Origin: Kiritimatiellia bacterium
Lineage (GTDB): Bacteria; Verrucomicrobiota; Kiritimatiellia; RFP12; UBA1067
Direction of reading: 5' to 3'
DNA: 60,834 nucleotides
Assembly: GCA_017628025.1 (NCBI GenBank)
Contig: JAGBZX010000041.1
Span: 1-60,834 of the forward strand
Shown here piece by piece: positions 1,625 to 40,276 of this stretch. The notes under the pieces are model-generated. The model searched no databases. It worked only from the letters and a program-made list of their open reading frames with translations, and was not told the DNA's origin. Both the position numbers and the translations under genes were made by a program. The stretch's first letter is position 1; every line of letters begins with the position of its first letter.

Positions 1625-2275
1625 TTGCACACAAATAAAAAAGAAAATAACGAGGAGAATGTTGTATTGCCCAAAAAGGCCGTTACGAGATTTTCTTTTC
1701 TTATTTATTGTTTTTCGTCGCTATTAGTTGTAAGTTCTATGGTTTTGCTTTCTCAATCACCAGAGGCTCGTTTATGTGACGAAAAAAAGGTGAATTTTCC
1801 CGTATTGCCTAATATGACAATGAATATTGAGCCTCCTTCTGAGGCAGAACTTTCAACATTGCCCAAAGATACAATTATAGAAAAACGTTCTTACACTGGT
1901 TCTATAGAAGGTCAATATTTTATCTCCGCAATTACTGGTGGTAGATCTAAAAGTTCTCTTCACCGCCCAGAGCTTTGTTTACCATCACAAGGTTTTGCGA
2001 TGCGAAATCCTCGCACAATAGAAACAGCGACTAGACAATGGCGCGTTATCACAGTTGAAAGTAGTTATTCAGAGAAAAGGTATCATGCTTATACATTTTT
2101 TAATCAAGAGGGTTTTGCTACCGCTTCTCATATGTCGCGCATTTTGCGAGATGTATTTGATCGCACGCTATTTAACCGTATAGATCGCTGGACAATGATT
2201 ACTGTTAATGTCCCAATTTGTAGCGAAGAGAAACTCCTTGAGATTCTTAACGCAATAGGAGATGCAAATGAATGA
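1625..2275 (+). CDS. Exosortase-associated EpsI-like domain
   Basis: SLHRPELCLPSQGF motif typical of EpsI. Same frame as the exosortase, separated by one TAG; no convincing RBS before the TTG. Confidence 0.75.
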   Translation: MHTNKKENNEENVVLPKKAVTRFSFLIYCFSSLLVVSSMVLLSQSPEARLCDEKKVNFPVLPNMTMNIEPPSEAELSTLPKDTIIEKRSYTGSIEGQYFISAITGGRSKSSLHRPELCLPSQGFAMRNPRTIETATRQWRVITVESSYSEKRYHAYTFFNQEGFATASHMSRILRDVFDRTLFNRIDRWTMITVNVPICSEEKLLEILNAIGDANE

Positions 2276-4145
2276 TTTCCTCATACTATTCGTCGTCTCA
2301 TTAGTGTCATCACTTGTTTTTACGCCAATAGTGCGAACTTTATGCAAGCGTTGGGGAATGATTGACTATCCTGGTCATAGGCGTATTAATAAGCTTCCCA
2401 TTCCTCGAGGCGGTGGTTTGGCTATTGTTTTAGTCATGACTTTAATATATCCGCTAATGTCTTATTTGTTAGATTTTGATATATGTTATGGGCGAGATGC
2501 TTATTCGTTTATCCGTATAGGTATTATAGCTATCTTTGTTGCGGTATTAGGTTTTGCCGATGATAGATGGAGTTTGCGTCCAAGTTTAAAATTAGCATTT
2601 CAAATAATAGCGGCAGCGGCAGTTTATTTATGGGCAGGATTAGGGTTTAAGGCTATATTTCCGCTATTGCCCCCATATTTAGATTTTCCAATAACGGTAT
2701 TTTGGATTGTAGGTGCGATAAATGCTTTTAATTTAATAGATGGACTTGATGGCTTGGCTTCTGGGATTGCTTTTATAGCTACGCTCGGTATGGCTGGCGC
2801 CTTGTGGTTTTCTGGTTCGCAAACAGAAGCAGTGTTTTTTCACTGTGCTTTCGCTGCATCAATTTTAGGTTTTCTGCGTTATAATTATAACCCTGCTAGT
2901 GTCTTTTTGGGAGATACTGGATCAATGTTTATAGGCTATACTATGGCTGTTATGCCATTAATGTTCCATGCTACAAATTCATTTTTAGTCTCTGTAGGAG
3001 TGCCTCTTTTAGCGATGGGAGTACCTATATTTGATACGACATTAGCTATTTTAAGGCGTTCATTGCGGTATCTTATCAAGAAAAATGATGTGAATGAAAA
3101 TTCAAATGGTAAGTTAATGACAGCTGACGCAGACCATATTCATCATCGTATTTTAAGAGCAACGGGCTTTAATCAACGAAAAGCAGCATGGTTTCTTTAT
3201 CTTGCCGCTGCCATAACTGTCAGTATTGGGCTTTTTGGTGTTTTGCTAGAATCTAAAGCGGCAGGGCTATGGGTGTTGGCAGTTGCTCTAGCTACTGTGG
3301 TTGTTTTTAGAAGCACCTCACATATAGAGATTTTTGATGCTGGCAGGTTGATAAATTCAAAGGTTCATGATACTAGTTTAACAACAAGGCGATTTATCGC
3401 GCGCATTACTGTGCCTCTATATGTGATACTTGATGTTTGTGCGCTTGTTAGCGCTTTTATGTTTCTTTCTTCGATTTTCTCTGTAGCAGGGATTACGTTA
3501 GCTTCGCGTCAAATTTGGCGTATGTGTTTATTACAAACTGTATTAACTTTTGGATCGCTTATTTGTTTTAAAAATTATCTTATAGTTTGGTCGCGAGCTA
3601 CTCCTAGCGACTATTTTAGGCTTATAATGGCTTCGTTAGTTGGTGCTATTTCGTCAGGGATATCGTTATTATACTTTTTTGATATACCATTTGTAACAAC
3701 TTTTGTTTTTTCAGTTTCCTATACATGTGTTATTTTTGCACTGTTGATTTTTTTAAGATTACTAAGACCGATTTTAAGAGATTCCTTTTTTAGAGTTAAT
3801 AGTGCTAAGTTAAGAAAATCAAATGATGTATCTAGAGTTCTTGTTTATGGAACGGGGCTTAGGTTTCGGGCGTTTTATCGAGAACTTGTACGTGGGCATT
3901 TTAACTCAAATAGGGTGATTGTTGGATTAATAGACGATGATTATTTGCTTTCTAATCGTTATATTGGAGGGTATTTAGTGTCTGGAACGTTGCATGACGC
4001 ACCTAAATTGATAAAGAAGTTGAATGTTGATACTGTTATTGTAGCATGTGAGATGAGTGATGAATGGAAGAAAGTTGTATTAGATATTTTATTGCCGACA
4101 GGAGTTAATATTCAACATTTTAGCTTCTCAGAAGAAAAGTTTTAA
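2262..4145 (+). CDS. WecA/MraY-family polyprenyl-phosphate sugar-1-phosphate transferase fused to a CapD-like membrane + Rossmann-like C-terminal region
   Basis: PRGGGLAI, GFADD, NAFNLIDGLDGLA, NPASVFLGDTGS, ADADHIHH; C-terminal RVLVYGTG...VGLIDDD. Start may be 2268. Confidence 0.85.
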   Translation: MQMNDFLILFVVSLVSSLVFTPIVRTLCKRWGMIDYPGHRRINKLPIPRGGGLAIVLVMTLIYPLMSYLLDFDICYGRDAYSFIRIGIIAIFVAVLGFADDRWSLRPSLKLAFQIIAAAAVYLWAGLGFKAIFPLLPPYLDFPITVFWIVGAINAFNLIDGLDGLASGIAFIATLGMAGALWFSGSQTEAVFFHCAFAASILGFLRYNYNPASVFLGDTGSMFIGYTMAVMPLMFHATNSFLVSVGVPLLAMGVPIFDTTLAILRRSLRYLIKKNDVNENSNGKLMTADADHIHHRILRATGFNQRKAAWFLYLAAAITVSIGLFGVLLESKAAGLWVLAVALATVVVFRSTSHIEIFDAGRLINSKVHDTSLTTRRFIARITVPLYVILDVCALVSAFMFLSSIFSVAGITLASRQIWRMCLLQTVLTFGSLICFKNYLIVWSRATPSDYFRLIMASLVGAISSGISLLYFFDIPFVTTFVFSVSYTCVIFALLIFLRLLRPILRDSFFRVNSAKLRKSNDVSRVLVYGTGLRFRAFYRELVRGHFNSNRVIVGLIDDDYLLSNRYIGGYLVSGTLHDAPKLIKKLNVDTVIVACEMSDEWKKVVLDILLPTGVNIQHFSFSEEKF

Positions 4146-4161
4146 AAGAAGATTCGAAAAT

Positions 4162-4189
4162 ATCGATATTTTCCGTACATAATTCTCAA
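4162..4189 (+). repeat. 28-bp 11-6-11 site, copy 1 (ATCGATATTTT-CCGTAC-ATAATTCTCAA)
   Basis: Aligns with copies at 4491, 4621 and (reverse) 40249. Confidence 0.7.
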
Positions 4190-4232
4190 TTTGATTTCTA
4201 AGGCTTCGGTGTTTGGTGATGATTCATAGCTG

Positions 4233-4398
4233 TTCTCGCTAAATCGCCTCTGAATACAGAGCCGATTTGCGGAGAAAAAGTTCGGGTGAGACATCGATTT
4301 TGCGACCTTTCTTTTTCGCTCCTTAAAGCCATGTTACCCGCGCTCTTAAAAAGAGCGCTTTGGCGAAAAACCGGTGCGTCAAAATCGGGTCGCTTCCG
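4233..4398. other. GC-richer structured non-coding insert (two long imperfect hairpins) between 28-bp sites
   Basis: Hairpin 4233-4276: TTCTC.GC.AAATCG.CTCTG-AATA-CAGAG.CGATTT.GC.GAGAA. Hairpin ~4283-4398: CGATTTTG/CAAAATCG, TTTTTCGC/GCGAAAAA, GCGCTCTT/AAGAGCGC. Confidence 0.6.
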
Positions 4399-4490
4399 CC
4401 TTTTCCTCCGCCGCTGTGAAGGCTTACGAATCATCCCGCCACCTCCGATTGGAGATGTTTATGCGACTTGTTTCAGAAGTGTACTGCGTG

Positions 4491-4518
4491 GTGAGAAATT
4501 TCCGCACATAATTCTCAT
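4491..4518 (+). repeat. 28-bp 11-6-11 site, copy 2 (GTGAGAAATTT-CCGCAC-ATAATTCTCAT)
   Basis: Inverted TGAGAA/TTCTCA arms around the asymmetric core CCGCAC. Confidence 0.8.
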
Positions 4519-4620
4519 TTTACTGATAAGTACTTGTTTTGGGCAAGTATGCTTGATTTTGTAAAGTATCTCCAGCTCTCCTAAACTCCAAATCTCCCAG
4601 TAAGCGTTAGCAATAGTAGT

Positions 4621-4648
4621 ATGAGAATTTTCCGCACGAAGTTCTCAT
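4621..4648 (+). repeat. 28-bp 11-6-11 site, copy 3 (ATGAGAATTTT-CCGCAC-GAAGTTCTCAT)
   Basis: Near-perfect inverted 11-bp arms. A degenerate fourth copy follows at 4650-4677 (TTGAGAACAAGGCACATAAACTTCTAAT). Confidence 0.8.
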
Positions 4649-4691
4649 TTTGAGAACAAGGCACATAAACTTCTAATTTTAAACGAAATTA

Positions 4692-4700
4692 TGATATAAT
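4692..4700 (+). promoter_or_regulatory. Extended -10 promoter (TGATATAAT) for the ilvB operon
   Basis: TGnTATAAT 20 bp upstream of the GTG; AAGGA RBS follows. Confidence 0.65.
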
Positions 4701-4720
4701 ACATAGAAATAAAGGAAATC

Positions 4721-6325
4721 GTGTCATATTCTTCTAGAACAGGAGCGCAGGCGCTTGTTGAGAGCCTTGAAAGGGCAGGCGTCGAGACGCTGTTCGGATA
4801 TCCCGGCGGAAACGTTGTGGATATCTTCGGTTTTTTGCGCAATTCTAAAATGAAGTTTGTTTTAGGTCGCCACGAGCAGGGTTGTGTTCATATGGCAGAT
4901 GGTTACGCTAGGGCTAGTGGTAAGCCAGGCGTAGTTCTAGTTACTAGTGGACCAGGAGCAACAAACGCAATCACGGGTTTGGCTACCGCTAATGTAGATT
5001 CTGTCCCATTGGTTCTTGTTTCAGGACAGGTGCCGCTTTCTCAAATTGGTACAGACGCTTTCCAAGAGGCTGATATGACTGGTATCTGCCGCGCTGTAAC
5101 AAAACATTCATTTCTTCTTAAAAGTGCCGACGAAATTCCTCAAGCAGTAGCAGAAGCGTTTTATATCGCTACACGCGGCAAACCTGGCGCGGTAGTTATT
5201 GACTTGCCACACGACGTGCAGCTTCAAAAGACTTCTGCTCAGTATCCAGAGCGCATTTCCCTTAGAGCCTATCACCCCGACACAGCACCAAAGCCGCGTG
5301 CTGTTGCTGAATTAGCTAGGCTAATTAATTCTTCTAATAGGCCTATTTTTTACGCTGGTGGAGGCGTGATTTCTTCTGGCGCTGCCGACGATTTAAGAGC
5401 GCTTTCTTCAAAAGCAGATATTCCAATTGTAACAACCTTAATGGGGTTAGGTGTAATTGAAAAGACTAGCACTCATGCCCTTGGTATGGCTGGTATGTAT
5501 GGCACAGAGGCTGCTAATATTGCGTTGGCCGAGGCTGATTTAATAATAGCGTTAGGCACTCGATTTAGTGATCGCATGACTACTACTTTAAAAACTAAAG
5601 GTAAAATAGTTCATGTTGATTGCGATCCTTCGTCTATTGAAAAAAATGTTAGTGTAAATTTAGGAATTGTCGCGGATATAAAAGATCTTATAACAACAGT
5701 ATCTTCTCGAATAAAGCCAAATTCTCATACTTCTTGGATGAAACGTATTTCTCAATTAAAGCGCTCATCAAAGAATAAGGTTCGGAAATTTAAAACTTCT
5801 AAAATACATCCTGGAGCGGTGGTTGAAGCTGTTGCTGAAGCTGCAAGTGACGACGCGATAATTGTAACAGACGTTGGTCAACATCAAATGTTTGCAGCTA
5901 GGTATTACCCGACACCAAAACCTAGGCGCTTCCTATCTCCTGGCGGCATGGGGACAATGGGCTTTGCGATACCTGCGGCAATAGGAGCGGCATTATCAAT
6001 GCCAAATGAAAAAGTTGTCGCCTTAATTGGTGATGGTGGCGCTCAAATGACATTTAATGAACTTAAGGTTGCTTCCGATGAGAAGCTCCCCATAACCTTT
6101 ATTGTATTCAATAATTCGTCTCTTGGGATGATTGAACGGATGGGTGAGGATTCGTTTGTTGGCAACTTTTCTAACCCTGATTTCGTTATGATGGCTAAAG
6201 CGTTAGGTTTGAAAGCTAAGAGAGTTTCATTAGTAGAAGAACTCAAATCGGCTGTTACTAATGCTGTTAAGTCATCTCACCCCTCGCTACTTGAAGTAAT
6301 TGTAGATGCCGATGCAAAAATCTGA
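4721..6325 (+). CDS. ilvB: Acetolactate synthase large subunit
   Basis: FGYPGG, RHEQG..HMADGYARASGKPGV, TSGPGATN, TDVGQHQM, TPP motif GDGG...NN. Confidence 0.93.
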   Translation: MSYSSRTGAQALVESLERAGVETLFGYPGGNVVDIFGFLRNSKMKFVLGRHEQGCVHMADGYARASGKPGVVLVTSGPGATNAITGLATANVDSVPLVLVSGQVPLSQIGTDAFQEADMTGICRAVTKHSFLLKSADEIPQAVAEAFYIATRGKPGAVVIDLPHDVQLQKTSAQYPERISLRAYHPDTAPKPRAVAELARLINSSNRPIFYAGGGVISSGAADDLRALSSKADIPIVTTLMGLGVIEKTSTHALGMAGMYGTEAANIALAEADLIIALGTRFSDRMTTTLKTKGKIVHVDCDPSSIEKNVSVNLGIVADIKDLITTVSSRIKPNSHTSWMKRISQLKRSSKNKVRKFKTSKIHPGAVVEAVAEAASDDAIIVTDVGQHQMFAARYYPTPKPRRFLSPGGMGTMGFAIPAAIGAALSMPNEKVVALIGDGGAQMTFNELKVASDEKLPITFIVFNNSSLGMIERMGEDSFVGNFSNPDFVMMAKALGLKAKRVSLVEELKSAVTNAVKSSHPSLLEVIVDADAKI

Positions 6326-39824: not shown

Positions 39825-40160
39825 CTACGCGGCGAGCGCATCACGCTCATCATCATACTCATTACAAGTACGTTTTGCGGGAGTGATAGTCTCAATCGCA
39901 AGACCTTTTTCCTTTATGGTGGAAAAAAATTCACCAGTTGTAATACCATCTTGCAAGACGCCGACTTGATTTCCACAATCGTCATAAAGAAACACCGATT
40001 CTCGCGTTATATTCTCTGATACAGTTATTTGCCTCGTCATCCTTGATGCCGAACCTTCATAAAAATAAGTCGTTATTCCAATCGGTGTTGTTTGGGATGT
40101 CATTCTCCCCAAGAGGTCATATGTAGATACAGAGTTAGTGACAACTCCGTAATCGTAGTG
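39825..40160 (-). pseudogene. Orphan YD/Rhs-repeat gene fragment
   Basis: TYDLLGRMTSQTTP.G.TTY.Y, FLYDDCGN, EYD repeats; no credible start, far shorter than an Rhs protein. Confidence 0.65.
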
Positions 40161-40171
40161 TTGCCTTGTTG

Positions 40172-40238
40172 AATGTTGCCAGTGTTGCCAATGTTGCCAG
40201 TTTCCAATTGGCAATTGGTATTGGTAATTGGCAACATT
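40172..40238. repeat. Tandem TGTTGCCAR x3 plus AATGTTGCCA...TGGCAACATT hairpin
   Basis: Seen directly; lies 10 bp from 28-bp site copy 4. Confidence 0.75.
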
Positions 40239-40248
40239 TTTAAATAAA

Positions 40249-40276
40249 ATGAGAATCACCTGCGGAAAAATCTCAA
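40249..40276 (-). repeat. 28-bp 11-6-11 site, copy 4 (TTGAGATTTTT-CCGCAG-GTGATTCTCAT)
   Basis: Reverse-orientation match to the sites at 4162-4648. A left-arm half site (TTGAGATTTTG) lies at 39781-39791 on the other side of the Rhs fragment. Confidence 0.75.

Follow-up and report, generated by a model that had tools for sequence, protein, structure and literature searches.

Short oriented repeats that fill a spacer between two housekeeping genes raise the question of what put them there: a recombinase that exchanges cassettes at them, or some other kind of mobile DNA. We address this question for contig JAGBZX010000041.1 of a Kiritimatiellia bacterium (NCBI GenBank assembly GCA_017628025.1), whose 60,834 nt are called the window here, and which is contig C29 of the assembly that we refer to as G000 (45 contigs, 1.45 Mb, 71% complete). 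A 575-bp spacer in the window contains four copies of one motif, all in direct orientation, with start-to-start spacings of 329, 130 and 29 bp (Table 1). The original prediction described them as recombinase-like sites, distinct from dif but with the 11-6-11 geometry of tyrosine-recombinase sites such as dif and pdif, bounding unrelated non-coding inserts that a lineage-specific cassette system, with its enzyme encoded elsewhere, would insert and excise. We found all the sites within one base of their predicted positions and the proposed consensus holds for them (mismatches in Table 1), while 100 dinucleotide shuffles gave 0.00 expected chance matches in the window. The account that we hold to be probable, with some reserve, is that small mobile elements, which form a lineage-specific family in one order of Kiritimatiellia from gut and rumen, carry the motif as their recognition end, and that the window array is a gene-less mosaic of the kind formed by Neisserial intergenic mosaic elements (NIMEs) and their dRS3 repeats. 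What remains of the original prediction is mobile, motif-bounded DNA whose gene lies outside the window; the assignment to the tyrosine-recombinase type does not remain.

The motif bounds a multi-copy element with a single open reading frame

We found 54 copies of TTTCCGCACATAATTCTCA in the assembly with at most three mismatches, and 45 exact matches to a pattern of 13 specified bases, against 0 for the reversed control, which confirms the genome-wide enrichment looked for. The core is TCCGCA-N4-AWTCTCA, with (T/C)(A/G)AGAWTT before it and a T-run after it, for 26–30 bp overall. In 22 of the copies the motif lies no more than 372 bp from a contig end, always (22/22) with unique DNA on the outside. 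Fourteen of them (“left” ends) run into TTTTATGATATAATA, the start of an open reading frame (ORF) and then the contig end; the other eight (“right” ends) run into a second common sequence and then the contig end. Together they make up 22 of the 90 contig ends of the assembly, and they mark either end of a repeat that lost its interior during assembly.

The missing interior could be reconstructed through a database protein of 332 aa, P0273, which is 95% identical to the assembled N-terminal 101 residues. In tblastn searches, its residues 1–101 mapped to the 14 left ends and its residues 303–332, with 100% identity and on the opposite strand, to the three right ends that reach far enough. Since the two termini of P0273 fall on opposite strands at the two types of end, the layout is motif, promoter, an ORF of ~1 kb, ~280 bp of non-coding DNA and an inverted motif, about 1.4 kb in total. 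A complete copy in a relative (L009/L044) has 1366 bp and consists of motif, 240 bp, an ORF of 309 aa, promoter and inverted motif. The size ranges are about 1.2–1.5 kb for the element, about 290–330 aa for the ORF and about 240–300 bp for the non-coding part, and every complete copy examined has this single ORF. Inverted motif copies around the ORF were seen in G000 and at loci L044-46, L055, L062, L071, L064-66 and L088-93, and the ORF-bearing unit reaches at least 14 copies in a genome of ~2 Mb. The motif thus almost certainly represents the ends of a multi-copy ORF-bearing element.

In insertion sequences (IS), the ends are inverted repeats and the left end contains a promoter; IS21, Tn7 and Mu have several subterminal binding sites per end. 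The element shares with IS its presence in many copies at many unique sites, terminal inverted repeats of ~30 bp, a single ORF in 1.2–1.5 kb and a promoter over one end; the 2–4 direct end-motif copies per end found in several genera recall IS21, Tn7 and Mu. It departs from them in four respects. None of the IS-family models of NCBIfam or Pfam matches its ORF, which shows no RNase-H-like, HUH, serine or tyrosine recombinase fold and encodes no transposase of a recognised class; IS ends usually vary between genera far more than its end motif does; its ORF-less derivatives are bounded by direct and not by inverted copies; and no target-site duplication was seen (see below).

Motif and ORF occur together across genera

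The ORF was present in 25 of 60 genus relatives, often in several copies, with up to 12 matches; the search misses G000 itself, where only fragments of the ORF were assembled. Each genome had between 0 and 58 matches to TCCGCANNNNAWTCTCA; with the reversed pattern as control there was none in any of the 61. Among the 60 relatives, 23 had both the ORF and three or more motif copies, 30 had neither, five had the motif copies without the ORF and two the ORF without them (Fisher p 1e-9; Spearman rho 0.74), a test that overstates the link because the genomes are related and not independent.

Directly upstream of TTT(T)ATGNTATAAT and the ORF, we found a motif copy at 23 of 30 ORF loci. The original prediction had considered a fixed promoter position as evidence against it; such a position applies to the ORF-proximal copy, which directly precedes an extended -10 box at these loci, but not to the copies of the window array. 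GC-rich homologues (L064-66) have flanking inverted repeats of 30 nt, 93% complementary, with the same core as GATTTCG-TCCGCAC-CGTAATCTCA. Among 200 sampled genomes of the phylum, the ORF family was found only in the family of the window (6 of 8) and in a second family of that order (1 of 1). In other genera and in this second family (L088-93), inverted motif copies stood on both sides at 6 of 6 loci, often as 2–4 direct copies per end, 90–140 bp apart. The ORF-motif link holds across genera down to about 30–50% protein identity and the motif core is conserved far beyond the divergence of the proteins.

Two of these genomes carry arrays of their own. In relative G021, 2–4 direct motif copies, 74–94 bp apart and with shuffled modules between them, lie upstream of the ORF promoter. 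Their spacings (L079-L087, L051) of 74, 80–85 and 94 bp are near 7, 8 and 9 helical turns, and the sites may share one face of the DNA. The genome from the other family (G032) has 139 exact motif copies, with a reversed control of 0, and direct arrays of up to eight copies (e.g. C98:25946-26961); almost all of its copies read TCCGCACCGTAATCTCA.

The window array is a mosaic of repeat modules

Table 1. Features of the array, its flanking genes and the distant motif copy in the window.
Feature	Position	Strand	Remarks
Upstream gene, 627 aa, Glycos_transf_4 + CoA_binding_3	2262..4145	+	ORF list; Pfam E 8.9e-37; left border of the spacer
Site 1, degenerate left arm; core and right arm = TTTCCGTACATAATTCTCA	4163..4188	+	motif match
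Module 1, about 301 bp, composite, repetitive, long imperfect palindrome	4189..4491	.	last ~30 bp = class U3
Site 2, canonical, = TGAGAAATTTCCGCACATAATTCTCA then TTTT	4492..4517	+	0 mismatches to the predicted consensus
Module 2, about 102 bp, recurrent “130-bp unit”	4518..4621	.	class D3 at start, class U1 at end
Site 3, = TGAGAATTTTCCGCACGAAGTTCTCA	4622..4647	+	0 mismatches to the predicted consensus; only copy with a clear hairpin
Module D6, containing degenerate site 4 (4651-4676)	4648..4680	+	site 4 67% identical to site 2
Host extended -10 box upstream of ilvB, TATGATATAAT	4690..4700	+	50 genome copies; not element-derived
Downstream gene, 534 aa thiamine pyrophosphate enzyme, acetolactate-synthase large-subunit type	4721..6325	+	ORF list, Pfam
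Solitary motif copy, then module D4 (GTTGCCAAT-like words) and short YD/Rhs-like ORF	40250..40275	-	2 mismatches to the predicted consensus

The 32 motif copies that are not element ends were all intergenic (32/32, with a crude ORF call); 25 touch a repeated module and 7 are solitary. Over all 54 copies, the flanks fall into classes U1–U3 upstream and D3–D7 downstream, and nine combinations of classes occur: U1 with D4, D5, D6 or unique DNA; U2 with D3 or D5; and U3 with D3, D4 or D6. The order in the window is unique / D7...U3 / D3...U1 / D6. With the exception of short gaps, 4164-4677 is repeated elsewhere in the genome: pieces of module 1 on C17, C1, C19, C12 and C26 (77–98% identity), module 2 between two direct motif copies on C1, C4, C10, C12 and C43 and partly on C20 and C14, and module D6 after motif copies at C19:21428 and C27:16517. 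Site 1, which has one mismatch in the 19 positions of core and right arm, has a paralogue with the same downstream context (class D7) at C35:684. The 301-bp and 102-bp “inserts” are therefore such repeat modules: they are short, non-coding, bounded by the motif and shuffled, as predicted, but they are not unrelated sequences, since they recur on other contigs. As the second part of the account given above, and with the same reserve, we regard the window array as a gene-less, NIME-like mosaic in which three to four direct motif copies join short repeat modules.

The downstream gene lies on the same strand as the motif in 26 of 30 cases, copies within one array not being independent; counted per locus with co-directional sites, 14 are same-strand versus 2 opposite-strand. 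This bias bears on a reading that we judge rather unlikely, in which the array copies are inert relics, decayed ends and debris shuffled by ordinary homologous recombination or gene conversion, with no function at the locus. Sites 1 and 4 are indeed degenerate, and motif variants go sometimes with the upstream and sometimes with the downstream module, which fits crossovers anywhere in the repeat; Bentley et al. (PMC1797815) weigh homologous recombination as one route for NIME arrays. Against inert debris stand the strong orientation bias with transcription and the comparable arrays in different genera with an almost unchanged core; these arrays argue for continuing selection or activity on the motif. 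In addition, the motif, with its 26–30 bp, is short for RecA-dependent exchange to be efficient.

The comparison of the region upstream of ilvB that the original prediction called for was informative in one respect: the motif is not at a conserved position there, being found at 0 of the 29 relatives' loci. It says nothing on cargo, since the same upstream gene was found in 0 of 29. Six gut-metagenome runs from three studies, available as contigs only, contain the stretch or part of it. Contigs from four of these runs end at 4206 and restart at 4578, data that are uninformative on excision, circles or strain variation; in the same four runs, loose ends of the assembly graph at 4492/4494, 4521 and 4650 only repeat module combinations present elsewhere in the assembly and give no joints.

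Some modules have features of their own. The class U2 module, which precedes five motif copies (C10:28077, C17:15104, C20:95611, C35:584 and C38:14252), ends in a small G+C-rich hairpin and a T-run, and with this terminator-like end some arrays may carry transcription stops. For module 1, the predicted minimum free energies are -103.8 kcal/mol (plus strand, z -4.0) and -109.8 kcal/mol (minus strand, z -7.1); this module, itself a patchwork of repeats, may represent a separate repeat of hairpin type that is nested within the array. We found no Rfam match in 3900-5000 or in four element and array loci, the sole row being a chance HIV stem-loop (E 0.21). Module D4, with short tandem words like GTTGCCAAT, follows five motif copies: in the window (40150-40249, minus) and at C4:34958, C22:17594, C26:1516 and C45:12531. 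The ORF beside the window copy, predicted as an Rhs fragment, has an RHS_repeat score of 21.5 bits, just below the cut-off of 22, and can only be called Rhs-like.

Recombination site, hairpin or promoter part

In the window copies, two partly palindromic arms can be drawn on either side of an asymmetric centre, the 11-6-11 geometry from which the original prediction started. If this were the core site of a tyrosine recombinase, circles would excise and integrate through an Xer-like or integrase enzyme encoded elsewhere, a possibility that we now regard as improbable. The dyad is weak, the arms being only partly complementary: of ten bases, 7–9 pair in sites 2 and 3, 5 in site 1 and 6–7 in the element-end copies. 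An apparent covariation of the arms at a few loci (AGAATT/AATTCT versus AGATTT/AAATCT) proved inconsistent, as the G000 ends pair AGATTT with AATTCT. The direct orientation of the array copies is what integration of one-site circles would give, and the modules are shuffled at the sites. The assembly also encodes two proteins with PF00589, a 300-aa XerD-like recombinase and a truncated phage-type integrase, encoded at 36.7 kb of C3 and at one end of C42.

The pattern of conservation is the reverse of that in dif and pdif sites. In dif, according to PMC6449649, the 6-bp centre is variable and the inner arm positions are highly conserved, whereas here conservation across genera is highest in the central TCCGCA block, the adjoining positions are variable, and the left arm is the least conserved part. 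The copies around the coding element are inverted, transposon-like, and not direct as the original prediction implied; an enzyme of this type would invert and not move it. The gene that covaries with the motif has no Phage_integrase match, nor a fold match to solved recombinases, and no motif copy was found near either PF00589 gene. Finally, double-stranded circles of only 74–130 bp, the size of the units, would be very short. With conservation highest in the central block and no linked integrase, the tyrosine-recombinase or dif reading is unsupported. A site of ~28 bp that can be drawn as two arms and a 6-bp centre, and modules shuffled between locations, recall the dif and pdif sites and Acinetobacter dif modules (PMC6449649; see also PMC13141974 and PMC10132070); set against these, the modules here are non-coding and of 100–300 bp instead of gene-carrying, the array copies are direct, there is no Xer link, and the location is chromosomal and not on a plasmid.

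We did not find any recombinase gene in the window, as originally predicted: all PF00589 and PF01797 matches are on other contigs. The 71%-complete assembly gave no match for DDE_Tnp_1, rve, IS110 DEDD, the TnpB domain or resolvase, and its only GIY-YIG match sits in a 500-aa frame, unlike an Ssn-type nuclease.

Partial dyad symmetry followed by a T-run, in intergenic copies co-oriented with genes, could also suggest an RNA or DNA hairpin, either an intrinsic terminator or a repetitive extragenic palindrome (REP, or the paired form REPIN) mobilised by a Y1 transposase of the REP-associated tyrosine transposase (RAYT) type. We consider this highly improbable. RNA hairpin energies of the five copies were weak and inconsistent (-5.3, -9.9, 0, -5.1 and -2.2 kcal/mol), and only one of the five beat its shuffles: site 3, with -9.9 kcal/mol (z -3.1), while site 1 gave 0 kcal/mol. 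A terminator scan found 0 terminator-like sites in 4000-4900, and the copies do not qualify as intrinsic terminators. The genome does encode two RAYT-like Y1 proteins, but no motif copy lies within 1.5 kb of either gene, and the one on C13 goes with a different palindrome, so that the motif does not belong to a REP or REPIN system with its RAYT.

These two RAYT-like (IS200-like) genes, C13:45504-47382 (L076) and C6:36135-37370 (L077), encode proteins of 359 and 411 aa whose C-terminal tail is a winged helix. A perfect-stem palindrome of ~39 nt, with about 10 copies (on C3, C4, C6, C13 and C41), stands on either side of the C13 gene, and genes and palindrome are a separate system of REP/RAYT type.

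The 1.45 Mb contain 50 copies of the box TATGATATAAT(A) and 148 of TGATATAAT, mostly just upstream of genes, and TATGATATAAT looks like the host consensus of an extended -10 promoter, with no obvious -35 box. Since 36 of the 50 copies of TATGATATAAT have no adjoining motif, the motif is not a general part of promoters, and the ilvB promoter is no evidence of element origin. We had considered that the ilvB promoter derives from the left end of the element, with which it shares 14 nt, and rejected this since TATGATATAAT is a general host -10 consensus.

The element protein and its possible role

The 309-aa protein of the relative (P0001) is 48% identical to P0273 over 222 residues (E 2e-75). The family has 845 matches (E<=0.001) and, at 50% identity, falls into 487 clusters; its conserved core covers about residues 100–245. 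Most matches are on contigs of 1–2 kb and, among the matches listed, every source name is “hypothetical protein” and the only organism named is Kiritimatiellae bacterium. Ten columns are invariant across 45 diverse members: R113, R131, P144, L173, D178, R192, G195, Y211, Q226 and P233. P0001 had no match better than E 0.04 in Pfam, NCBIfam or PHROGs, and ten longer family members had no Pfam domain. PADLOC gave a single row, for P0273 (E 0.044), a sequence-profile search of PDB only chance rows (E >= 0.75), and the ESM Atlas only hypothetical clusters and named rows at chance level. Neither the 72,556 plasmid nor the 50,697 phage records searched with tblastn contained a match to the protein. 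Its AlphaFold model is confident (pLDDT 84.7) and helical, with a single beta hairpin. Hydrophobic stretches precede the conserved core, at about residues 112–137 of P0273 and 66–84 of P0001.

In the account that we favour, an autonomous copy would consist of a motif over the -35 region of an extended -10 promoter, one ORF, non-coding DNA and an inverted motif. The protein would bind the motif and catalyse or direct the breakage and joining of DNA, thereby spreading the element; the same activity, or plain recombination between copies of 26–30 bp, could build and shuffle the arrays. Binding at the promoter-proximal copy might autoregulate the ORF, and arrays such as that of the window would be placed in tolerated intergenic spacers, co-oriented with the flanking genes. 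Judged from sequence, the chances that the protein is an enzyme acting on the motif are about even.

The ORF might instead be cargo or a regulator. DNA bounded by the motif would then be moved by an enzyme acting in trans, unassembled or of another family, and the ORF product would be an autoregulator or something unrelated, possibly a membrane protein. To this reading we give a small but real chance. The fixed distance between the promoter-proximal motif and the -10 box at the 23 of 30 loci fits an operator, the model has no nuclease- or recombinase-like fold, a membrane helix is possible, and the incompleteness of the assembly leaves room for another enzyme. TnpB-only IS200/605 elements are a precedent for IS-like units whose gene is not a transposase. 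Another is provided by the NTS-ssnA-NTS units (PMC11893778), IS-like with a non-transposase gene. Against cargo speak the absence of a second ORF from every complete copy examined, the persistence of the ORF-motif link across genera at the low protein identities given above, the lack of any other transposase class among those searched for in the assembly, and the fact that the RAYT-like genes have a different hairpin repeat of their own.

Coming back to an element moved by its own protein, several observations weigh against this account. Of the 30 loci in relatives, 7 have the second motif copy near the ORF in direct and not in inverted orientation. Nine complete copies showed neither target-site duplications nor flanking direct repeats, a point in which the tyrosine-recombinase alternative fares better. 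At most ends (those of G000 and L044-L072), a C-rich tract of 3–5 bases (CCCC, CCCT or CACCC, read inward) lies just outside the motif. The closest ilvB among the relatives' genomes has 68% identity, which leaves no close strain for comparing filled and empty sites. Local alignments between the modules and the element interior stayed within the range of shuffled sequences (z <= 3). As for the protein, Foldseek searches with the model had 0 matches at E<=0.001 in PDB and BFVD, its almost all-helical fold is unlike that of DDE, DEDD, HUH or serine enzymes, and the hydrophobic stretch of P0273 is long enough for a membrane helix, which would be odd for a DNA enzyme. The C-rich bases could also be the true terminus or a target preference.

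Relation to known systems and implications

Since no significant similarity links the modules to the interior of the element, their descent from the element is unproven beyond the motif itself, and the idea that they derive from the interior was dropped. Like miniature inverted-repeat transposable elements, they are short, non-coding, multi-copy units that share their end sequence with a coding element. They differ in lacking detectable similarity to its interior, in being chained, with neighbours sharing one motif copy, and in their direct flanking copies; as the copies bounding the window modules and the 130-bp unit are direct, they do not belong to this class. Nor is the array a CRISPR array: its spacings are 329, 130 and 29 bp and the “spacers” recur elsewhere; cas genes were not searched for.

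The closest architectural parallel is with NIMEs. According to PMC1797815, a short semi-palindromic repeat (20–28 bp) bounds many repeat families of 50–150 bp in dynamic intergenic arrays, for which Bentley et al. (2007) proposed a site-specific recombinase; in PMC11893778, some of the Neisseria repeats are tied to a small nuclease gene in an IS-like motif-gene-motif unit. In both systems, as described there, a short oriented semi-palindromic repeat (dRS3/NTS in Neisseria) surrounds non-coding repeats of ~50–150 bp in variable order and number, and an IS-like unit exists, NTS-ssnA-NTS there and motif-ORF-motif here. The mosaic architecture is thus present, but the 71%-complete assembly showed no associated Ssn-type GIY-YIG nuclease or IS110-like recombinase. 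The motif sequences are unrelated and the likeness is architectural only. The protein here has ~310 aa and no recognised fold, where Neisseria has a GIY-YIG nuclease of 94 aa or an IS110-like phage recombinase; the motif makes a poor hairpin; the ORF-bearing unit itself is high-copy; and the host is a gut anaerobe of a different phylum. We know of no natural transformation in such a gut Kiritimatiellia host.

A bolder proposal, which we put forward only tentatively and consider doubtful, is that the helical protein of ~310 aa is the first of a new class, either a DNA transposase or a site-specific recombinase, whose fold differs from those of the DDE, DEDD, HUH, serine and tyrosine enzymes. 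It would recognise TCCGCA-N4-AWTCTCA, mobilise its own element of 1.4 kb with no duplication of the target, and assemble and reshuffle NIME-like arrays of non-coding modules beside host genes throughout an order of gut Kiritimatiellia. We found no description of such an element in Kiritimatiellia in the literature, supplementary files and ISfinder lying outside the search.

What has come to light is a mobile element that is abundant in Kiritimatiellia of gut and rumen and has no annotation, with hundreds of motif copies in related genomes. In practice, the motif can serve as a marker for assembly breaks and for spacers rich in repeats in genomes of the group assembled from metagenomes. If our account is true, either the element protein would be a mobile-DNA enzyme of a new kind, or an enzyme of a known class would be hidden elsewhere. 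NIME-like mosaics would then not be confined to Neisseria, and Kiritimatiellia would offer a second, independent system for array formation and effects on neighbouring genes.

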